Shown here piece by piece: positions 1 through 14,901 of a DNA stretch of 43,249 nucleotides (position 1 is its first letter; each line of letters opens with the position of its first letter). The notes beneath the pieces are model-generated. The model saw only the letters and a list, made by a program, of their open reading frames with translations. It was not told the DNA's origin and made no database searches. Both the position numbers and the translations under genes were made by a program. Origin of the DNA: an uncultured Eubacteriales bacterium (GTDB taxonomy: Bacteria > Bacillota > Clostridia > Lachnospirales > Lachnospiraceae); the NCBI GenBank assembly GCA_900313775.1, contig OMSP01000137.1, forward strand, positions 1 through 43,249, written 5' to 3'.

Positions 1-837
1 ATCGATGCGGTCACACACGCGCTGAGAGAGCAGGGAAAACTGGGAACGGAAGCCCATCCGATCGCGCACAGCCGCGGCATAGAATCAGAAGCTGTCAACC
101 GCTATCTGGTGATAGCGGAGGAGGCCGGAACGCCTGTCAATATCGTGCATCTGAGCACAAAAGAAGGACTGGAATTCGCAAGAAAGGCAAGAAAACGGGG
201 CCAGACAGTATGTATCGAGACCTGCCCGCAGTATTTCTTCCTGGACGATTCTCTCTACAGTCTCCCTGACTTCGAGGGAGCAAAATATGTCTTCTCACCG
301 CCGGCACGTAAAAAAGAGGATCAGGACGCTTTGTGGGAAGCCCTGGAAAACGGTGAGATCGATACCATCGGTACCGACCACTGCAGTTTCAACTTTGCTG
401 TAGAAAAAAGGATCGGTGAGCATGATTTTTCAGCGATCCCGAACGGTATCCCCGGAGTGGAACACCGACCGGCACTGATGTATACATACGCTGTCGATAC
501 AGGCCGTATATCCAAGGAGGCGTTCTGCAGGCTTCTGTCTGAAAATGTCGCCAGAGAATACGGCATGTATCCGAAAAAAGGTCTTATCGCACAGGGCTCT
601 GACGCTGATATAGTCGTATGGGACCCGAATGCCGAAGGGGTGATCACTGCTGCCGATCAGACACAGAATGTCGATTACACACCATATGAGGGGATGAAGA
701 CCAAAGGACGCGCTGAGAAAGTCTATCTGCACGGTGAGCTTGCAGCGCAGGACGGGAAGGTAGTAAAGACAGGTCTGGGCCGCTATGTCCACAGAGGTCC
801 TGCGGATCTGTCGTTCAGAGACAAAAGAGAGGAATGA
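1..837 (+). CDS. Hydantoinase/dihydropyrimidinase-family cyclic amidohydrolase, C-terminal part (5' end lies outside the window)
   Basis: Frame 1 is open from base 1 (IDAVTHALREQGKLGTEAHPIAHSRG...), so the ORF-track start at 109 is internal. Segments VNIVHLSTKEGLE, IDTIGTDHCSF, IPNGIPGVEHR and GSDADIVVWDP are typical of this amidohydrolase family. Stop TGA at 835-837. Confidence 0.8.
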   Translation: MDAVTHALREQGKLGTEAHPIAHSRGIESEAVNRYLVIAEEAGTPVNIVHLSTKEGLEFARKARKRGQTVCIETCPQYFFLDDSLYSLPDFEGAKYVFSPPARKKEDQDALWEALENGEIDTIGTDHCSFNFAVEKRIGEHDFSAIPNGIPGVEHRPALMYTYAVDTGRISKEAFCRLLSENVAREYGMYPKKGLIAQGSDADIVVWDPNAEGVITAADQTQNVDYTPYEGMKTKGRAEKVYLHGELAAQDGKVVKTGLGRYVHRGPADLSFRDKREE

Positions 838-838
838 G

Positions 839-1936
839 ATGTATACTGTCAGTCTGTTTGAGAGAATAAATGCCGAAATGGCCAATGGCCGCGTTTGGGT
901 GGCCACGGCGATCCGTAACCGTGAGATAGTCTGGAAGATCGTCTTTACGTCGTCAGAGGTATTATACAGTGAACCGGAGGATCTTGATTTGCGTCAAGTA
1001 TGCTCACTTGACACCGATGGATTCGACTCTTTGCTTGATCTGTGGAGGACGAAGCTTGCCGCTGAATCCATAAAAGACGGCGATCAGACGATAATGCTTG
1101 AGTCGTTCGGGCAGCGCAAGCAGTTAGTCGTTTGCGGTGCAGGGCATGTAGCACTGAACTTGATCAGAATTGCAAAGATCATCGGGTTTAATGTCATCTC
1201 GCTGGAAGATCGTCCGATGTTCGCCAATATGGCATCCGAAGCGGGAGCGGACCGTGTGATCTGTGAATCCTTTGAGGAGGGGTTGGCACAGGTCGATTCA
1301 ACAGGAGATACCTGCTTTATCGTCATGACCAGGGGGCACCGCTACGATGAGATATGCCTGCGGTCCATATTGAGGAAATCATATGCCTATGTAGGCATGA
1401 TGGGGAGCCGCGGCAGGACGGTAAATGTCAAACATGATCTGGAAAAAGAAGGGTTTACAACAGAAAAACTGGACGATCTGCACGCTCCGGTCGGTCTGGA
1501 CATAGGAGCGCAGACACCGGCTGAAATCGCCGTCAGTGTGGCTGCAGAGCTGATTGAATATCTGCGGTCACACAACCGCTCGATCGATGACGGCATTCAA
1601 AGTGTCGTGGAGAGCGCTGCAGATCAGCAGAATGCACAGATGCACAATGTGGTAGCCACCATCGTATCCAAGCGCGGAGAGACGCCGCGTACGGTCGGCA
1701 CGAAGATGCTTGTACTGGAGAACGGACAGATGGTCGGAACGATAGGAGGCGGCTGTGCGGAGGCTGAGGTCATCACACAGGCGCGTGCAATGATCCAGCA
1801 GGCTCGTACGTCGGGAGCGGAGGCTGTCGAGGCAAGGCTCTGCGACGTTGATCTGACGCCGGCACAGGGCAATGCAGAGGACTCGATGTTCTGCGGAGGA
1901 TTGCAGGAAGTTCTGCTGGAAATGGTCGCGGGTTAA
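839..1936 (+). CDS. XdhC/CoxI-family molybdenum-hydroxylase maturation factor (YqeB-like context)
   Basis: ATG 839 is preceded by GAGAGGAA; the 785 start in the track would overlap the upstream gene by 53 nt. A Rossmann-like XdhC_C segment is present (LVVCGAGHVALNLIRIAKIIGFNV ... MTRGHRYDE ... VGMMGSRGR ... APVGLDIGAQTPAEIAVSVAAELI). It is followed by an XdhC_CoxI-type segment (VVATIVSKRGETPRTVGTKMLV..GTIGGGCAEAEV ... MFCGG). Confidence 0.75.
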   Translation: MYTVSLFERINAEMANGRVWVATAIRNREIVWKIVFTSSEVLYSEPEDLDLRQVCSLDTDGFDSLLDLWRTKLAAESIKDGDQTIMLESFGQRKQLVVCGAGHVALNLIRIAKIIGFNVISLEDRPMFANMASEAGADRVICESFEEGLAQVDSTGDTCFIVMTRGHRYDEICLRSILRKSYAYVGMMGSRGRTVNVKHDLEKEGFTTEKLDDLHAPVGLDIGAQTPAEIAVSVAAELIEYLRSHNRSIDDGIQSVVESAADQQNAQMHNVVATIVSKRGETPRTVGTKMLVLENGQMVGTIGGGCAEAEVITQARAMIQQARTSGAEAVEARLCDVDLTPAQGNAEDSMFCGGLQEVLLEMVAG

Positions 1937-6000: not shown

Positions 6001-7038
6001 ATGGGTATTATCCTGGCTATTCTTATATTCGGCTTTATCGTGATGTTTCACGAATTCGGCCATTTTATCGTAGCCAAGAAGAGCGGCATACAGGTGTTCG
6101 ACTTTTCGATCGGCTTCGGACCTTCTGTACTACATTGGCAGCGGGGAGAGACGACCTATAATATCAGACCGATCCCCCTGGGCGGTTTTTGCGCGATGGG
6201 AGAGGACAGCGCAGAGGGCGAGAAAGGTAATTTCAATGAAAAGCCAGTCTGGGTGCGGATGCTTGTCATACTGGCCGGTCCGTTTTTTAATTTTATTTTG
6301 GCGTTTCTCATCGGAATCATACTTGTGGGGGCGACGGGTTATGACGAACCCGTTATCGGAGATGTAATGGACAATTATCCGGCGGCCGAGGCCGGCATAC
6401 GACCCGGAGACGAGATCGTCTCCATTAACGGCAAACGGATTCATCTCTGGAGAGAGATAACACTGAATAACGCCATGTATCCGGGGGAGAAAGATGATAT
6501 AGTCTACGAGAGAGACGGCAAGAGACATGAAGTTACGATCACTCCGGTCAAGGGCGAGGACGGTCGTTATATGATGGGCATACAGGCCCGCAAAGAATAT
6601 TATACCAAGGCCAATGTGCTGACTGCGATCCAATACGGATATTATGAGGTCAAATACAGTGTCCGCTCAACAATCGACGGTCTGAAAATGCTTCTCTACC
6701 GCAAAATTGGTATCAAAGAGCTGTCCGGTCCGGTCGGAATAGGAAATCTTGTCAATGATTCTTACCAGGAGAGCCGCAGCTATGGAGTCAAAGCTGTCCT
6801 CATGACGATGCTGTCCATTGCCCTGCTGATTTCGGCCAACCTGGGCGTAATGAACCTTTTGCCTATTCCGGCACTGGACGGAGGACGCCTGCTGTTTCTG
6901 ATCATCGAAGCGGTCAGAAGAAAACGCATACCGCCCGAAAAAGAAGGGATCGTCCATCTGGTCGGCATGGCGTTGCTGTTGATACTCATGGCGATAGTGA
7001 TGTATAATGATATAACGAAAATTATTGCCGGAAGATAA
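6001..7038 (+). CDS. rseP: RIP (site-2) zinc metalloprotease, M50 family
   Basis: HEFGHFIVAKK (HExxH) near the N-terminus. Internal PDZ-like segment (AAEAGIRPGDEIVSINGKRI). C-terminal NLLPIPALDGGRL motif. Multiple TM segments. Confidence 0.9.
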   Translation: MGIILAILIFGFIVMFHEFGHFIVAKKSGIQVFDFSIGFGPSVLHWQRGETTYNIRPIPLGGFCAMGEDSAEGEKGNFNEKPVWVRMLVILAGPFFNFILAFLIGIILVGATGYDEPVIGDVMDNYPAAEAGIRPGDEIVSINGKRIHLWREITLNNAMYPGEKDDIVYERDGKRHEVTITPVKGEDGRYMMGIQARKEYYTKANVLTAIQYGYYEVKYSVRSTIDGLKMLLYRKIGIKELSGPVGIGNLVNDSYQESRSYGVKAVLMTMLSIALLISANLGVMNLLPIPALDGGRLLFLIIEAVRRKRIPPEKEGIVHLVGMALLLILMAIVMYNDITKIIAGR

Positions 7039-7049
7039 AGGTAATTTGA

Positions 7050-10000
7050 TTGAAGAATAAGATCAGAAAAAGTTCAAAAGGCGATTTTTCAGCTGTAAAA
7101 CCGCAGGTAGTCTTTTCTCAGACCAATATCGGTATGACACTTGGAGAGGGAGAGATCTACCGCGGGTCTTTTACTATCAAGAGCACAAACCGTATCAGTG
7201 TGCGTGGGCTGGTCTATGTCTCTTCTAGGCGTGTGACGATAGATGAGACCGGTTTTGACGGGACGGAAAATACGATCCATTACACTTATGATGGGACCGG
7301 TCTGTATCCCGGCGATATCGAGACGGGCACTTTTGATATCGTGTGCAACGCCGGAGAGTATTCGCTTCATTTTGCTGCTTTTGTCGAAAAACCTTTCGTC
7401 ATGACTTCCTACGGCAAGGTGCAGAGCCTGAAGAATTTCGCTCATCTGGCGATGAACGATTATATGGAGGCACACCGGCTTTTTAAGTCCCGCGACTTTT
7501 TTGAGATCCTCAAGTACGAGGATGAACGTGTTTCAGCTCTTTATAAGAATCTGCGCACCTGGTCGCTCGATGAGGAAGCACTCGAGGAATTTCTGGTGGG
7601 AACTAAACAGAAAGAGCGTGTGATGCTCAGTCTGCCAAAGACCCGCAAATCGATCGACTTTTTGAGCGAGACCCGCAAGACGGTCATGGTCGCACAGAAG
7701 AATACATGGGGTTATATTCCTATCGAGATCTCAGTCGACGGAGAGTTTATCCATGTCGATAAGACCCATTTTTCGACTGATGATTTCGTGGGCAATACCT
7801 TTACGCTTGAGTTTGTGATCGACAGAGAAAAGCTCCACGGCGGCCGTAATTTTGCCCGCATAACTCTGCAGACACCTTATCAGGTGCTTCACTATGATGT
7901 GGACGTGCTCGAAGGGCATCATTATTCGGGGCAGCTCATGCAGGCAAAGAGGCTTTACGGCGATATAATCCAAAGCTATCTCCCCTGTGTCTGCGGAAAG
8001 ACGACAGTCGCGGAGTGGATGCCGCAGGCTCTGCAGATGGTTGAGGAGCTTCACGCCCGATATGACGAAGACCCCTTTGTGGATCTGGTACAGGCTCATA
8101 TCTACCTGCGCGGCAACAAGAAAGAGGAGGCGAAATGGATCCTTGACAAGTTCGAATACAACCGGATGATGCCGATCTCACAACCCGAGCTGGCAGCATA
8201 TTATCTGTTTCTTTCGGCTGTTCTTTCCGGGGACAGCAGGCAGATGCGTCATATAGCGGAAGAGCTCGAGAGACTGGAGCTGCGCAATGACGATTCGTGG
8301 ATGATCGTCTGCATGCTGGCTCAGCTATCACCCGCTTACAGAGACTACAGAAACCGGCTGGAGTATCTCAAACACAAATTTGCAAAGCACCGTTTCAATT
8401 CTCTGCTTTTCTTCAAGGAATGCTATATCTGTTATCAGGAGAGCAACGGACTGCTCAGTTCGGTCGGTCCTTTCGAACTGCATGTACTGGAATTTGCCTG
8501 TAAGCGAGGTATCTTTACCGCAGAGCTGGCGGCTCAGCTTGCCTCGCTTATCCCGCAGGTGAGAGAGTACGACGAGCGTCTTTACCGGGTGCTGTGCCGG
8601 GTATACGATATGTATCCCTCTGTGCAGATGCTGTCTGCGATCTGTTCGCTCCTGATCAAACGCCAGACAGCGCGCAGTGAGGATTTTAAATGGTATCAGC
8701 TGGCGGTAGAGGAGAACCTCAGCATTCCGAAACTCTATGAATACTATATGATGACGATCTCTGAGGAGAAAGTAAAGGAGGCGCTGCCGAGATCGATCTA
8801 TCTGTATTTCCTTCACGATGATCTTCCTGATTATCGCAAGAAAGCGCTGCTCTATGCCAATATACTGACATACGAAGAGGAGAGCTCGCCTCTGTTCGCC
8901 GATTATCTGAACCAGATGGAGAGCTTTGCGATGGAACAGCTTCTCAAGCGCCGTATCAACGACAGGCTGCGGATCATTTACAAGCGGTTCTGCAACGAGG
9001 AACTGCTGACGATCGAGCAGATCAACGCGCTCAACGATATCTGTCACGCCTACTCGATCAGCACATCGGCAGGAAACATCCGCCACGTGATGATCCTGGA
9101 CGGAAAAGGCAATCAGGTAGATAAGGTCCCTTATACGGGACCCGGTACTGTCGTGTTCGTGCACGATACGACCTCCAGGATCATATGGGAGTCAAACGAG
9201 GGACGGATGTATTCGGATTCCATACCCTATGAGACAAAGAGACTGTTCTACGAACCGCATTTTATCGAGTTCTGCAAGCATTATCTGGATACCACTCACC
9301 AGGGAGCGGAGGAGCACGCCAACGAGGAAGCGGTCATGCAGACAGTCAGAGATCAGGGATTGGCATCTGCGGATATGGAGACAGCCTTTCAGGCCTGCAC
9401 CAGACGGATCGCGGACGGCGACGGCAGCAAAGACGCTTTTCTCCTGGATCTGGCATATCACCTCTTTGAGAAAGGCATGTATAACAAGACGACGATGTCC
9501 TATCTCAACGCTTATTTCTACGGCGGTTCTCATACAATGAAAAAGATATGGCGTCAGGCGAGAAAATTTGATCTTGCAACTGAAAGTCTGGCGGAGCGCA
9601 TCATCACACAGATGCTCTTTGCGGAGCAGATGGTGACAGAAGAAGATATCTTCTGCAATTACGAGAGAAAGGGAGCTTATTTCAGGTTAAAGCAGGCATA
9701 TTTTGCATACATCTCTCACCAGTATTTTGTGTACGACCGGATCGTTGAACCGAAGATATTTTCCATGATCGCCCAGGAGTTTATTCGCGAAGAAATCCTG
9801 CCGGACATCTGCCGTCTTGCGCTTCTGCGCTATTACAGTGATCATCCGCGTGAGCCTGGTATCAGGGATATTCTGCAGACTTTTATGCAGGATTTTTGCG
9901 AAAAACGCAGCATCTATCCCTGCTTTCTCAAGTATCCGGACAGCTGGAAGAATGCTGTATGTCTGGACGACAAGACCGTCGTATCCTATCAGAGCCGTTT

Positions 10001-10355
10001 CGGGGGGAAAGTGCGGATACATTACAGGGTATTGAGTCCCGGAGATCTGAAGAGCGATATCGACTTCGTATCCGAGGTGCTGATACCTGCTTATGATCAG
10101 ATTTATGTCAAGGTTTTCGTGCTTTTTTTGAGGGAAACTCTGGAGTATTACTTCGAAGAATTCGATGATGAAAAATCAGTTAAGACTGAGCGGTCACAGT
10201 TGCGTGTGGAACGCCAGGAGAGTGTATACGGCAAGTACCACCGCTTAAACCATATGGCGTCGCTGCCTGCTAACAGTCGGGCTAAAGAGCAGGAGATCAG
10301 AGCGTATGCCGAGGAGGAACAGCTGGCCCGTGATCTTTTCAAATTCTATGAATAG
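7050..10355 (+). CDS. Hypothetical giant soluble protein (1101 aa): two N-terminal beta-sandwich-like modules, long helical-repeat body, beta-rich C-terminal module
   Basis: Uninterrupted 3.3-kb ORF. TTG 7050 is the first possible start, because an in-frame TGA sits at 7047-7049; weak AAGG SD 8 nt upstream. I could find no TM segment, signal peptide, P-loop or catalytic motif. From memory it may correspond to the family annotated as DUF5717 in Lachnospiraceae; unverified. Confidence 0.8.
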   Translation: MKNKIRKSSKGDFSAVKPQVVFSQTNIGMTLGEGEIYRGSFTIKSTNRISVRGLVYVSSRRVTIDETGFDGTENTIHYTYDGTGLYPGDIETGTFDIVCNAGEYSLHFAAFVEKPFVMTSYGKVQSLKNFAHLAMNDYMEAHRLFKSRDFFEILKYEDERVSALYKNLRTWSLDEEALEEFLVGTKQKERVMLSLPKTRKSIDFLSETRKTVMVAQKNTWGYIPIEISVDGEFIHVDKTHFSTDDFVGNTFTLEFVIDREKLHGGRNFARITLQTPYQVLHYDVDVLEGHHYSGQLMQAKRLYGDIIQSYLPCVCGKTTVAEWMPQALQMVEELHARYDEDPFVDLVQAHIYLRGNKKEEAKWILDKFEYNRMMPISQPELAAYYLFLSAVLSGDSRQMRHIAEELERLELRNDDSWMIVCMLAQLSPAYRDYRNRLEYLKHKFAKHRFNSLLFFKECYICYQESNGLLSSVGPFELHVLEFACKRGIFTAELAAQLASLIPQVREYDERLYRVLCRVYDMYPSVQMLSAICSLLIKRQTARSEDFKWYQLAVEENLSIPKLYEYYMMTISEEKVKEALPRSIYLYFLHDDLPDYRKKALLYANILTYEEESSPLFADYLNQMESFAMEQLLKRRINDRLRIIYKRFCNEELLTIEQINALNDICHAYSISTSAGNIRHVMILDGKGNQVDKVPYTGPGTVVFVHDTTSRIIWESNEGRMYSDSIPYETKRLFYEPHFIEFCKHYLDTTHQGAEEHANEEAVMQTVRDQGLASADMETAFQACTRRIADGDGSKDAFLLDLAYHLFEKGMYNKTTMSYLNAYFYGGSHTMKKIWRQARKFDLATESLAERIITQMLFAEQMVTEEDIFCNYERKGAYFRLKQAYFAYISHQYFVYDRIVEPKIFSMIAQEFIREEILPDICRLALLRYYSDHPREPGIRDILQTFMQDFCEKRSIYPCFLKYPDSWKNAVCLDDKTVVSYQSRFGGKVRIHYRVLSPGDLKSDIDFVSEVLIPAYDQIYVKVFVLFLRETLEYYFEEFDDEKSVKTERSQLRVERQESVYGKYHRLNHMASLPANSRAKEQEIRAYAEEEQLARDLFKFYE

Positions 10356-10367
10356 AGGGAATGATCA

Positions 10368-11660
10368 GTGACGGAAAAGAGTACAAAATATGTGATCGGT
10401 TACGATCTGAATGATCAGTTCTGCCAGATCAGCTACTTCCATGAGGGTATGGAAGAGCCTATGACACGGGAGGTTCTTGCCGACAATTTCAAGATCCCTC
10501 TCGTCATCGGTACGCTGGACGGCAGATGGGCCTATGGTCAGGAAGCCATGCACCATATGGCAGCAGAGCCGGAGAGGTTCTGTGATCATCTCTTTTCACG
10601 GGCTGTTGCCGGTGAGACAGTCGCTATCACGCGCAGCGAAGTGCCGGCGAACAAACTTCTGGAGAAGTATATCGAGTTATCGCTGAGTGATTACCCGCGC
10701 ATCGATTATCTGGTCTTTTCCGTGCCGGAATTGACGGAAAAAGTCGTGCGTCTGCTCAAACGGATCGGCCGCCATATCGGAGTTGATCCCGACAGGATCA
10801 TTGTGCAGGACTACAAGGAGAGTTTTTGTCAGTTTATGTACGATCAGCCCAAGGAACTCTGGAAATACGAAGCGGCTCTGTTCTACTGCGACAAGGAGAT
10901 GGTCACCGCCTATATGATGAAAAAGGTCGATACGGAATATTCAGCCGACAATACGACCTTCGTCATGGTCGAGGAGGTATCACACGCCAAGATGAGCGAG
11001 CTGCATGTGACTTTCCCCGTCATAAACGTTGAGCTGGCGATGGAAGCGGATATGCGCTTCATGCATTTTGTCGGAGGTGTTTTCGATAAGAGACGCGTTT
11101 CATCCGTGTTTCTGACCGGAGAGGGATTTGAGAGCAACTGGTACCCGGAATCCCTGAAGGTCATGTGCAACGGTCGACGTGTCTTTTTGGGCAATAATCT
11201 GTACAGTAAAGGCGCATGCTATGAGGCAGCGCGCAAAAGCAGCGGACGAAGAGACGGACCGATCTATCTGGACGAGTCGAAAATGACGGACCAGGTGTGT
11301 ATGAAAGTGCGCGTGGGAGAGGAGTTCGAATGGTTCCCGATCATCTCATGGGGAGAGCACTGGTATGAATCGGACTGTGAGTATGAAGTGCTGCTCGAAA
11401 ACGATGACCCGATCGAACTGCGTCAGAATTCGCTGGCGACCGGGGAATCCAAGACGATCGAAGTGGATCTCTCCGGACTGCCGGATCGCAAGAATTATTC
11501 GCTGCGAGTCCTGGTGAGGGCCACTTTTGCAGATGAAAACAGGTGCAGGATCACTTTTAAGGATATGGGATTCGGAGAAATATTCCCTGAGACAGACTTT
11601 TCCAAGGAGATCACGGTAGTGCTGGGAGGAAGCAATGAGCAGTTTAGTACTCTGTCATAA
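10368..11660 (+). CDS. Hsp70/actin-fold (ASKHA) protein with degenerate nucleotide-binding loops plus a C-terminal beta-rich domain; function unknown
   Basis: GTG 10368 with GAGGGA SD 7 nt upstream. By-eye colinearity with the DnaK NBD: KYVIGYDLNDQFCQISY, FKIPLVIGTLDGRWAYGQEA, YLVFSVPELTEKVVRLLKRIGRHIGVD..RIIVQDYKESFCQFMY, ALFYCDKEMVTAYMMK, VFLTGEGFESNWYP. It may correspond to the family annotated as DUF5716; unverified. Confidence 0.8.
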   Translation: MTEKSTKYVIGYDLNDQFCQISYFHEGMEEPMTREVLADNFKIPLVIGTLDGRWAYGQEAMHHMAAEPERFCDHLFSRAVAGETVAITRSEVPANKLLEKYIELSLSDYPRIDYLVFSVPELTEKVVRLLKRIGRHIGVDPDRIIVQDYKESFCQFMYDQPKELWKYEAALFYCDKEMVTAYMMKKVDTEYSADNTTFVMVEEVSHAKMSELHVTFPVINVELAMEADMRFMHFVGGVFDKRRVSSVFLTGEGFESNWYPESLKVMCNGRRVFLGNNLYSKGACYEAARKSSGRRDGPIYLDESKMTDQVCMKVRVGEEFEWFPIISWGEHWYESDCEYEVLLENDDPIELRQNSLATGESKTIEVDLSGLPDRKNYSLRVLVRATFADENRCRITFKDMGFGEIFPETDFSKEITVVLGGSNEQFSTLS

Positions 11661-12402
11661 ACAAAAAGCGACTCAGCCGACCAGGCTCGCCCATATCCGC
11701 TACAAGATATACACATTGGAAGAGCTGGCTTATCTGATGTGTGATAATCTCTACCTGCTCGATCACACTTTGATGGAAGAATCCTTCTGTGCGTGGATTG
11801 AACGCGAATTGGGGCTGTTTCAACTGGCTGACGGTCTGCGTGAGCAGATCGCCAGAAGAGTGTCACTTGAAGAGTTTATCCTCTATTTTCTGTCGCATAC
11901 TCAGATCTATACGCGATCAGAACTGGCCGACATCAAATCTGTGCTCGATGAGCTCGAGGGCCAGGAGGAGGTGGAAAAGCAGAAGCTGAAAGCAGACGAT
12001 CTGCTTGTTCACCGAGAATACGAAAACGCGGTGCTGGCTTATCAGTCGATCTTGGCAGCACAGCGCACAGAAGGCGTGAGCGCGGAGTTTTACGGTAAGG
12101 TCTATGCATGCCTGGGAGCGGCTTACGGACGACTCTTTCTCTACAGGGAGGCCGCAAAAGCCTACAGCGCTGCCTATCAGATCTGTGATGACTATGAGAT
12201 GGTAAGAGCCTATATATACGCCTGCAGGCAATATATGTCAGCTGAAGAATACCATCTGCTGCTTGCGGAGAAAGATCTCTTCAAGGTTGCAGACAAAGAA
12301 AATGCCGCTGCTATCAGCGCGGTGGAGGAAAGCGTGCCGGAGCATATCGATGACAGCGTCATCAACGATTGGAAGAAAACTTATCGTGAGATACCGGTCT
12401 AG
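11635..12402 (+). CDS. Hypothetical protein with C-terminal TPR repeats (255 aa)
   Basis: ATG 11635 with GGGAGGA SD (11624-11630); overlaps the preceding ORF by 26 nt. Residues about 117-205 fit the TPR consensus (for example GKVYACLGAAYGRLFLYREAAKAYSAAYQICDDY). Stop TAG 12400-12402 is embedded in the purB SD. Confidence 0.75.
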   Translation: MSSLVLCHKQKATQPTRLAHIRYKIYTLEELAYLMCDNLYLLDHTLMEESFCAWIERELGLFQLADGLREQIARRVSLEEFILYFLSHTQIYTRSELADIKSVLDELEGQEEVEKQKLKADDLLVHREYENAVLAYQSILAAQRTEGVSAEFYGKVYACLGAAYGRLFLYREAAKAYSAAYQICDDYEMVRAYIYACRQYMSAEEYHLLLAEKDLFKVADKENAAAISAVEESVPEHIDDSVINDWKKTYREIPV

Positions 12403-13847: not shown

Positions 13848-13873
13848 CACAGGTATACAGACTTGTTTGCGAC

Positions 13874-13906
13874 AAGCATGCTCATTGACTTTGAGCATGC
13901 TTTTTT
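13874..13906 (+). terminator. Rho-independent terminator after purB
   Basis: Perfect 10-bp stem aagcatgctc (13874-13883) / gagcatgctt (13893-13902), 9-nt loop, T6 run (13901-13906). Lies 27 nt after the purB stop. Confidence 0.65.
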
Positions 13907-13913
13907 ATATAAT
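13885..13913 (+). promoter_or_regulatory. Candidate sigma-A promoter nested in the purB terminator (drives nnrD-alr...)
   Basis: TTGACT (13885-13890, inside the hairpin loop), exactly 17 nt, TATAAT (13908-13913, immediately after the T-tract). Confidence 0.55.
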
Positions 13914-13923
13914 TATTCTGTAT

Positions 13924-14901
13924 ATGTATGCGTATTTGGAGGGTGGACAAATAGGATATATTGCAACGACAATCGACCCCAGAGAGCTTCTCCCCGTGAG
14001 GAAAGCTGAGAGTCACAAAGGGACTTACGGTCGCGCACTTCTGATCACCGGATCGCCTGGCATGGCCGGCGCAGCTTATCTTGCCGGTATGGCCGCCTAC
14101 AGGTCCGGATGCGGGCTTGTGGAGTTGTTTACTCATGAGTCCAACCGGATCATACTGCAGCAGCTGTTGCCGGAAGCAGTGATGACAGTTTACGGAGATG
14201 AGGATAAAAAGCTGGCCGATAAACTCGAAAAGTCGATTCGGCGTGCGGATTCCGTCGGCCTGGGCTGCGGACTGGGACTGAGCGATCAGGCTGTTGATAT
14301 TGTTCGCAATTCCTGTGAATTTGCCGTGAGCATGCACAAACCACTGCTGGCGGATGCCGACGCAATAACTCTGATTGGCAGGGAAGAGTCTTTGATCAGC
14401 AGTCTGAGGAGGCAGAGTGTTGTCTTTACACCGCACCCGAAAGAAATGACTTCACTTACACATATGCATACGGACGAGATCCTGAGCGACAGAGAGACCA
14501 TCGTTACAAGCTTTTGCTCTGTGTCAGGTACAGTATGTCTGCTCAAAGGCCACAGAACGCTTGTAGGCTCGCCTTCGGGTGCTCTTTACGAGAATCATAC
14601 AGGCAACAGCGGTATGGCGGCCGGGGGCAGCGGCGATGTGCTTTCAGGTCTGATCACAGGTCTTATGGCACAGGGCGTGGATCTGTACGATGCGGCCTGT
14701 CTGGGAGCCTGGATTCATGGTCATGCCGGGGATCTTGCGGCGGAAGACACAGGCGAGCACGCGATGATGGCCAGAGATCTGTTGGAGAGTCTCACGGAAG
14801 CAATGTGGGAACTTGAGCAGGATGAAGATGAATTGGAGGATGACGAATTCGCGGACGATGAATTCGGGTACGACGAGACAGAAGATGAGGATGATGAATA
14901 A
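13924..14901 (+). CDS. nnrD: ADP-dependent NAD(P)H-hydrate dehydratase (stand-alone YjeF-C/NnrD) with an acidic C-terminal tail
   Basis: HKGTYGRALLITGSPGMAGAAYLAGMAAYRSGCGLV, TPHPKEM and GNSGMAAGGSGDVLSGLITGLMAQG motifs. Start is uncertain. The track start TTG 13867 lies upstream of the terminator/promoter and is unlikely. ATG 13924 is the first ATG after the predicted promoter. A GGAGGG at 13938-13943 hints at an even later non-ATG start. Confidence 0.85.
   Translation: MYAYLEGGQIGYIATTIDPRELLPVRKAESHKGTYGRALLITGSPGMAGAAYLAGMAAYRSGCGLVELFTHESNRIILQQLLPEAVMTVYGDEDKKLADKLEKSIRRADSVGLGCGLGLSDQAVDIVRNSCEFAVSMHKPLLADADAITLIGREESLISSLRRQSVVFTPHPKEMTSLTHMHTDEILSDRETIVTSFCSVSGTVCLLKGHRTLVGSPSGALYENHTGNSGMAAGGSGDVLSGLITGLMAQGVDLYDAACLGAWIHGHAGDLAAEDTGEHAMMARDLLESLTEAMWELEQDEDELEDDEFADDEFGYDETEDEDDE

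Follow-up and report, generated by a model that had tools for sequence, protein, structure and literature searches.

Here, we describe a conserved gene cassette of the Lachnospiraceae whose products we propose to assemble around a look-alike of the chaperone Hsp70. The cassette was studied on a 43,249-nt stretch of DNA from an uncultured Eubacteriales bacterium of this family (contig OMSP01000137.1 of assembly GCA_900313775.1), hereafter called the window, in which it comprises three open reading frames (ORF1 to ORF3) directly downstream of rseP. Over their full lengths, ORF1 and ORF2 clearly belong to the Pfam families DUF5717 and DUF5716, respectively, and ORF3 encodes a small tetratricopeptide repeat (TPR)-like protein. 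With a probability of roughly 55%, we interpret the cassette as encoding a static pseudo-Hsp70 scaffold complex, which is inherited vertically as an operon in Lachnospiraceae and in gut Clostridia related to them. This proposal is based on the strict co-conservation of the genes, on a modelled Hsp70 fold that has lost its canonical ATP loops and its lid, and on the predicted architecture of the very large ORF1 protein.

The three genes form one conserved unit

Genome relatives were the best 80 of at least 572 DUF5716-encoding loci in species-representative genomes (L001-L080), and all named records among them belong to genera of the Lachnospiraceae, including Dorea, Faecalicatena, Faecalimonas, Sellimonas, Merdimonas, Bariatricus, Claveliimonas, and Hespellia. 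The DUF5717 gene is located directly upstream of the DUF5716 gene on the same strand in all 80 loci. ORF3 follows with a 26-nt overlap in 79 of them, and the contig of the 80th stops short of ORF3. The order DUF5717-DUF5716-ORF3 is also kept in every distant locus examined. As full-length homologues of each ORF number in the hundreds, ORF1 to ORF3 are real genes and not chance reading frames.

In other lineages, the DUF5716 and ORF3 genes are fused. Nine of the 150 top family representatives are DUF5716::ORF3 fusion proteins of 687-737 aa, in which the ORF2/ORF3 boundary is a continuous reading frame, and the fusion genes have DUF5717 directly upstream. The C-terminal halves of the fusions are ORF3 homologues (e.g., residues 446-713 of P0440 against the ORF3 profile; hhalign 99.7%, E 1.5e-25). 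That the split pair is fused elsewhere argues for binding of the DUF5716 and ORF3 proteins to each other and would also account for the overlapping junction in the window, which has the layout of a translational-coupling junction. A programmed +1 frameshift joining ORF2 and ORF3 was considered in view of the natural fusions and rejected, as no recognisable shift site was found on reading the 26-nt overlap and translational coupling is simpler. Shared order and strand, the conserved overlap, and the fusions together bear out the original prediction that the trio is one functional unit.

ORF3 consists of a conserved N-terminal domain (aa 1-105), for which no relatives are known, and a TPR-like region (aa ~112-205). 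Window ORF3 has no Pfam match, TPR families included. Built from 44 homologues, an ORF3 profile gave weak matches to the TPRs of Sti1 (E 0.007), Tah1, and SGTA (range E 0.007-0.65), and the profile matches to the TPRs of Sti1, Tah1, and TTC8 were at E 0.007-0.2. In addition, a distant homologue in locus L086 is recognised by Pfam TPR_12 (2.5e-7, 31.2 bits vs. a cutoff of 30.1), residues 160-180 agree with the TPR consensus by eye, and certain homologues carry the JGI name 'tetratricopeptide (TPR) repeat protein'. These matches, most of them weak, favour the tentative assignment of ORF3 as a small TPR-like protein, which was likewise predicted before.

ORF2 is an Hsp70 look-alike with degenerate ATP loops

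ORF2 belongs to PF18980 (DUF5716_C; 5e-95, 318 bits vs. a cutoff of 34.7), as had been suspected in the original prediction. The family is large and diverse: among 1.84 billion representative proteins clustered at 50% identity, a profile search recovered 1437 clusters, 562 of them at E <= 1e-30. Sequence comparison with Hsp70 gave little: Pfam HSP70 (PF00012) had no match in ORF2 at E <= 0.01, single-sequence searches of the PDB yielded nothing significant, and the ORF2 profile reached DnaK in the PDB at E 0.12 only. Direct comparison of ORF2 and DnaK with hhalign gave E 7e-5 and a probability of 63%; the DnaK sequence used here and in the motif alignment below was entered by hand, and the phosphate-1 motif alone is backed independently, by alignment to a PDB DnaK chain.

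The AlphaFold2 model of ORF2 (36 homologues, pLDDT 81, pTM 0.82) was matched by Foldseek to DnaK at E 1.5e-19 over ~530 alignment columns and to hundreds of further Hsp70 chains, including BiP, Hsc70, Hsp110/Sse1, and the atypical Ssz1. The structural alignments span the nucleotide-binding domain and the beta substrate-binding domain (SBD-beta) and cover almost the whole of lid-truncated DnaK chains. On the basis of the model, we assign aa 298-420 of ORF2 to the SBD-beta of Hsp70. The model ends past this beta domain at about residue 420, and the alpha-helical lid (SBD-alpha) and C-terminal tail of Hsp70 are absent.

The ATP-binding motifs were inspected in an alignment of 136 diverse members of the DUF5716 family. 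The phosphate-1 motif of DnaK, DLGTTNS, is replaced by DLNDQFC in ORF2, and the positions equivalent to T11 and T12 are never predominantly threonine across the family. The equivalent of the phosphate-2 motif (DLGGGT) reads FYCDKEM in ORF2, and its GGG is lost family-wide. The equivalent of D194 is a tyrosine in ORF2 and D or E in 95 of the 136 members. The structural glycines equivalent to G341 and G374 are invariant, and the hydrophobic interdomain linker is kept. An Hsp70 fold devoid of the ATP loops, as foreseen from the sequence of ORF2, is thus what model and alignment show.

The alternative hypothesis that the cassette encodes a dedicated active chaperone system, with DUF5716 as divergent Hsp70 ATPase, the TPR protein as co-chaperone, and DUF5717 as obligate giant client or targeting factor, draws on the retained fold and interdomain linker, on the conserved equivalents of D8 and G341, and on the circumstance that ORF3 finds its best PDB profile matches, weak as they are, among co-chaperone TPRs. 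We consider it unlikely. Both phosphate loops are lost throughout the family, the window protein has a tyrosine at the D194 equivalent, the lid is missing, and Pfam reveals no J-domain or GrpE-like protein among the cassette proteins. Covalent fusion of the supposed co-chaperone to the Hsp70-like protein would also better fit a static complex. ORF2 furthermore lacks an EEVD-type acidic tail. Its actual tail, GGSNEQFSTLS, is disordered in the model and conserved among relatives (GGSNxQFxxLS), and was considered as an EEVD-like linear motif for the TPR protein. This candidate was rejected for two reasons: read in the +1 frame, the same stretch encodes the conserved first residues of ORF3 (MSSLVLCH), which explains why the tail is kept among relatives, and members of the wider family do not share it. 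Given the degenerate ATP site and the lack of J-domain, nucleotide exchange factor, and EEVD-type tail, the chaperone/co-chaperone/client logic first suggested for the cassette holds as an analogy only.

ORF1 resembles a large scaffold at fold level

ORF1 is composed of PF18984 (DUF5717_N; 2e-206, 688 bits) and the C-terminal PF18983 (DUF5717; 1e-84, 284 bits), both far above the cutoff of 25; this family, too, had been suspected in the original prediction. Searches of Pfam, NCBIfam, and the PDB identified no catalytic domain or enzyme family in ORF1, and PDB sequence and profile searches returned nothing significant. The AlphaFold2 model (pLDDT 83.7) is divided into beta-sandwiches and alpha-solenoids (Table 1). 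Foldseek matched the N-terminal sandwiches to the SPD-2 domain of CEP192, to Caf1M, and to chains of the ciliary central pair (~280-330 columns), and we take the matched sandwiches to be ASH/PapD-like domains. The solenoids matched Ctr9, Ski3, Naa15, IFT-A, and OGT, and a weak BepA TPR profile match lies in solenoid 1. These fold-level matches of sandwiches and solenoids have E-values of 4e-6 to 2e-3, and their TM-scores are low because single domains alone match. At the level of folds, the model supports the view that ORF1 is a large non-enzymatic scaffold, in line with the earlier description of a very large protein without recognisable enzyme family.

Chains of the ciliary central-pair apparatus occur among the matches of both ORF2 (7sqc_Z0, 7n6g_6K) and the ORF1 sandwiches at 7107-7913 (7sqc, 9ijj). 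Striking as it is, this overlap is probably due to chance, given how common these folds are.

The canonical cassette has a fourth gene

Distant lineages encode a conserved protein of ~395 aa right after ORF3 or the fusion gene. Two hydrophobic helices in its middle, i.e., a hairpin of two transmembrane segments, lie between regions predicted to be helical or coiled-coil, and the protein carries the motif QNKVKIRYVNNTN, with NKVKIRYVN.TN invariant; in L089 it additionally bears a 350-aa low-complexity extension rich in K and E. No relatives of the fourth protein were found in Pfam, NCBIfam, or the PDB; a single fourth protein showed a sub-threshold match to SLATT_1 over the hairpin (E 0.028, 14 bits vs. 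a cutoff of 41). Among 80 metagenome loci that were retrieved by a search for the fourth gene (L091-L170), all have this gene directly after the ORF3 homologue, and DUF5716 and DUF5717 are located upstream wherever the contig reaches, which defines the canonical cassette as one of four genes. The three-gene cassette of the original prediction therefore stands as a trio but is incomplete.

The fourth gene is absent near the cassette in the window and in L001-L080, as screened over up to 10 kb from the cassette. The DUF5717 proteins of four-gene cassettes contain ~80 extra helical residues at the position of the window linker at aa 749-757, and these are missing from the alignment in the three-gene clade. 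The joint absence of insert and membrane subunit suggests that the insert may dock this subunit. By this comparison, the window cassette appears to be a reduced version of the four-gene cassette.

Promoter and gene neighbourhood

In the original prediction, the cassette was regarded as fused in a functionally meaningful way into the pyrH-rseP operon. The relatives speak against this. Direct adjacency to rseP is confined to 2 of the 80 loci, L001 and L002, which are the closest relatives (~72% identity), and in eight further loci rseP is found ~2-6 kb upstream with intervening genes. The upstream gene in 41 of the 80 loci encodes a divergently oriented CobD/HisC-like pyridoxal phosphate-dependent enzyme (TIGR01140 at 269-277 bits, just below the cutoff of 290.55; e.g., L003:5449-6546, L082:1079-2176, and L088:5184-6275, all on the minus strand). 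This divergent gene is also found in distant lineages and is not in the window. Downstream, purB follows within 0-7 kb in 57 of the 80 loci, often past an amino-acid ABC transporter and purF. In distant lineages the cassette lies beside unrelated genes, e.g., valS, RNase J, ppk, and adhE. Apart from the frequent purB/purF and the divergent CobD-like gene, the neighbours provided no consistent functional clue. A tabulation of neighbourhoods as proposed beforehand thus kept the trio together (80/80), found purB frequently nearby, and did not uphold the association with rseP.

Most relatives have a conserved element ~45 nt upstream of DUF5717, consisting of TTGCCA, a spacer, and an extended -10 of TGCTATAAT. 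Written out more fully across L003-L080, this promoter-like element has the form GCATTGCCATT, spacer, AATGCTATAAT, with TTGCCA as the -35, and is positioned ~40-110 nt before the DUF5717 start (e.g., L018:6590-6645, L046:6617-6638). A palindrome, ATGCTATAAT-TT-ATTATAGTAT, lies over the -10 of this element, and a second inverted repeat (GCATTG/CAATGC) reaches from the -35 to the -10; these repeats could be an operator for some regulator. The relatives' promoter looks sigma-A-like and conserved across genera. In the window and L002, rseP coding sequence occupies the place of this element. Divergent or varied neighbours and a promoter of its own indicate that the cassette is an operon in its own right, which reached its place behind rseP by relocation in the window lineage. 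Judged from these loci, adjacency to rseP is lineage-specific and carries little functional information.

Two further hypotheses can be weighed here. As a sub-case of the proposed static complex, the cassette could encode a membrane-associated scaffold specific to Lachnospiraceae that acts in morphogenesis, division, or sporulation. An Hsp70/actin-superfamily fold combined with a coiled-coil membrane hairpin and a large scaffold recalls, by analogy, divisome and morphogenetic assemblies, and the family-wide vertical conservation would fit; yet no locus examined shows linkage to division, shape, or sporulation genes, and the relatives' promoter looks like a sigma-A rather than a sporulation-sigma type. 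We regard this specialisation as improbable. Still less probable is a functional tie to envelope biogenesis or regulated intramembrane proteolysis via the uppS-cdsA-dxr-rseP operon. The short distance of 11 nt from rseP, uninterrupted by a terminator, the same arrangement in L001 and L002, and the membrane protein of the canonical cassette are compatible with such a tie, which is contradicted by the rarity of rseP adjacency, by the divergent upstream gene in about half of the loci, and by the unrelated neighbours in distant lineages.

Inheritance and distribution

Identity to the window proteins drops in step with that of purB and rseP across relatives. In the window, GC content at third codon positions (0.57-0.63) and codon-usage distance (0.08-0.13) of ORF1 to ORF3 are inside the range of the neighbouring genes, so that the impression of neighbour-like composition and codon choice, and of no recent island, is corroborated. 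No plasmid copies of the cassette were found in the search. Five 'Bacteriophage sp.' records match, which are unannotated virome scaffolds; the two that were fetched, L171 (MT835719.1) and L172 (MT835486.1), are labelled UNVERIFIED, derive from human faecal viromes, and carry the four-gene cassette. A phage origin was rejected because the cassette of L172 is flanked by genes for RarA, ValRS, MoxR, and a glycosyltransferase, so that the record looks like a fragment of a bacterial chromosome. The sequence comparisons point to vertical, chromosomal inheritance. The cassette is present in many human-gut metagenome contigs, and some homologue clusters contain hundreds to thousands of sequences.

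An anti-phage or conflict system with TPR and scaffold proteins as sensors and the two-transmembrane protein as membrane-disrupting effector, to which the faint SLATT_1 match is the sole hint apart from a general resemblance of large repeat proteins with a small membrane protein to some defence operons, is the least probable of the explanations considered, since no cassette protein matches PADLOC-DB at E <= 1, the cassette is absent from plasmids and the examined 'phage' record is chromosomal, at least 572 species-representative matches exist with a stable position in the sampled clade (usually upstream of purB) and housekeeping-like divergence, codon usage is native, a sigma-A-like promoter is conserved across genera, and the window clade lacks the supposed effector while the other three genes are intact. 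NCBIfam likewise has no match for any cassette protein, and literature searches on the DUF names, the Pfam accessions, and atypical bacterial Hsp70 operons retrieved nothing relevant.

The window locus

The lengths and start codons of the three ORFs, their gaps and overlap, and their Shine-Dalgarno sequences all read as originally described (Table 1). ORF1 begins 11 nt past the stop codon of rseP, which ends at 7038, and 12 nt separate the ORF1 stop from the ORF2 start. The stop codon TAG of ORF3 is contained in the TAGGAGG preceding purB. Transmembrane segments were not detected in ORF1 to ORF3 (Kyte-Doolittle, 19-residue window), as had been stated before; the maximum means are 1.37, 0.84, and 0.75, respectively, vs. 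2.65 for rseP. According to Pfam, the 5' flank encodes pyrH, frr, uppS, cdsA, dxr, and rseP (M50 and PDZ), and the 3' flank purB, a Carb_kinase gene, and alr.

The original prediction placed the first terminator or promoter after purB, at 13874. The terminator stands: the hairpin at this position is the strongest such match downstream of the cassette on this strand, a weak terminator-like match of 6 pairs lies within ORF2 (11043-11060), and the signal scan found none between rseP and ORF1. The absence of an earlier promoter does not, as a sigma-70-like site with 11 of 12 consensus positions is present in the 3' end of rseP. Its bases are kept in L002, where they are likewise rseP coding sequence, and promoter-like sites in the scanned region numbered 22 vs. 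17 expected from shuffles. The site, a consensus match only, is a possible internal promoter of the cassette in the window lineage.

Table 1 Features of the cassette in the window (positions of the whole 43,249-nt stretch) and fourth genes in other loci
Feature	Position	Strand	Description
sigma-70-like promoter match	6979..7008	+	TTGATA-18-TATAAT; 11/12 consensus; in rseP 3' end, ~40 nt before ORF1
ORF1	7050..10355	+	TTG start, 1101 aa; DUF5717 family; putative giant non-enzymatic scaffold
ORF1 first beta-sandwich	7107..7421 (aa 20-124)	+	ASH/PapD-like Ig fold; model secondary structure, Foldseek
ORF1 second beta-sandwich	7647..7913 (aa 200-288)	+	ASH/PapD-like; model secondary structure, Foldseek
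ORF1 alpha-solenoid 1	7929..9044 (aa 294-665)	+	TPR-like; ~20 helices in model; Foldseek
ORF1 central small beta domain	9048..9242 (aa 667-731)	+	model
ORF1 low-confidence linker	9294..9320 (aa 749-757)	+	pLDDT <50; site of ~80-aa insert in four-gene cassettes
ORF1 alpha-solenoid 2	9324..9956 (aa 759-969)	+	model
ORF1 C-terminal beta-sandwich	9972..10205 (aa 975-1052)	+	model; inside Pfam DUF5717 C-terminal
ORF2	10368..11660	+	GTG start, 430 aa; DUF5716 family; Hsp70-fold protein (model)
ORF2 beta-sandwich domain	11259..11627 (aa 298-420)	+	assigned to Hsp70 SBD-beta; all-beta in model; conserved Y-L-D/G linker precedes
ORF2/ORF3 26-nt overlap	11635..11660	+	ORF3 in +1 frame; GGGAGGA 5 nt before ATG
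ORF3	11635..12402	+	ATG start, 255 aa; N-terminal domain and TPR-like region
terminator-like hairpin	13874..13902	+	after purB; 11-bp stem, T run
fourth gene	L081:5794-6990; L084:8500-9684; L086:9088-10266; L088:12169-13308; L089:12201-14387		also in L091-L170

Two side observations concern the flanks. The genes before pyrH (window 109-1936) are an amidohydrolase fragment and a gene for an XdhC-family protein, not rpsB-tsf, which is often located upstream of pyrH-frr in other Firmicutes. The ORF of the Carb_kinase gene, an NAD(P)H-hydrate dehydratase, is listed at 13867-14901 with a TTG start in the purB terminator hairpin; as a promoter-like site (13885-13913) follows this listed start, the true start is probably further downstream.

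Proposed complex and comparison with known systems

We propose that the DUF5717, DUF5716, and TPR products assemble in one stable, non-enzymatic cytoplasmic complex. Briefly, DUF5716 would be an Hsp70 paralogue that serves as fixed adaptor or clamp instead of an ATP-cycling chaperone, with the TPR protein presumably bound beside its C-terminus. DUF5717 would provide a platform of ~1100 residues, in which a pair of ASH/PapD-like Ig domains and a pair of TPR-like solenoids are joined by two more beta domains. For the canonical form, we consider it probable that the fourth protein anchors this complex at the cytoplasmic side of the membrane. The ancestral promoter would have been replaced in the window, L001, and L002 when the cassette was relocated directly behind rseP.

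Several observations weigh against this proposal or parts of it. The equivalent of D8 persists in the family, as does an acidic residue at the D194 equivalent in most members, and nucleotides may still be bound even though the canonical motifs are gone. The fourth gene may reside elsewhere in the genomes of the window clade. Membrane tethering is assumed from hydrophobicity and gene linkage. It is more tentatively, and with less than even odds, that we extend the static complex to a hitherto undescribed membrane-tethered machine of gut Clostridia, in which an Hsp70 became a structural clamp that works independently of nucleotides, which has its own role in the cell rather than that of a DnaK variant, and of which the window cassette would be an 'untethered' derivative.

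The Pfam entries DUF5717 (PF18984 and PF18983) and DUF5716 (PF18980) are catalogue entries with no assigned function, and neither ORF3 nor the fourth gene is covered by a Pfam family. Like the canonical Hsp70 proteins DnaK, BiP, and Hsc70, ORF2 combines a nucleotide-binding domain with a beta substrate-binding domain and has equivalents of D8, G341, and G374/A375 and a hydrophobic linker. It differs from them in its low identity (~12%), its length (430 vs. ~640 aa), the loss of the phosphate-1 TT, the phosphate-2 GGG, and the lid, and in that its operon supplies neither a J-protein nor a nucleotide exchange factor as partner.

Ssz1 of the yeast ribosome-associated complex (RAC) and Hsp110/Sse1 are Hsp70-fold proteins that act as stable, non-cycling subunits of hetero-complexes, and the substrate-binding domain of Ssz1 is truncated and occupied by a segment of its partner. 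Chains of both are among the Foldseek matches of ORF2 (6sr6, 5mb9, 7x3k, 2qxl). Both are eukaryotic, however, and in contrast to the cassette, which has no J-domain, Ssz1 still binds ATP and has the J-protein Zuo1 as partner. We therefore regard Ssz1 in RAC as the closest working analogy, a resemblance in logic and not in membership. Sti1/Hop, Tah1, and SGTA, the best though weak matches of ORF3, are similar in that ORF3 is likewise paired, genetically, with an Hsp70-fold protein. However, ORF2 has no EEVD tail for such a partner, and ORF3 has an extra N-terminal domain of ~105 aa and, in certain lineages, is part of one polypeptide with the Hsp70-like protein. The likeness of ORF1 to ASH/PapD-like proteins of the major sperm protein (MSP) fold and to TPR superhelices is at fold level and extends neither to sequence nor to function.

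The Pfam DUF entries already exist, but the sources searched contain no record of the fold assignments, of the DUF5716::ORF3 fusion, of the fourth gene, or of the correlated deletion. To our knowledge, an Hsp70 that lacks the ATP loops and is permanently joined to a TPR protein and an 1100-residue scaffold would be unusual in bacteria, with Ssz1 as closest parallel. For experimenters, the cassette is a defined four-protein target, for which nature offers usable variants, i.e., fused and split DUF5716/TPR proteins and cassettes with and without the membrane subunit and DUF5717 insert. In the human gut, few bacteria are as abundant as the Lachnospiraceae. If our proposal is true, these dominant gut bacteria would harbour a widespread pseudo-chaperone complex and, with it, an unusual reuse of the Hsp70 fold.

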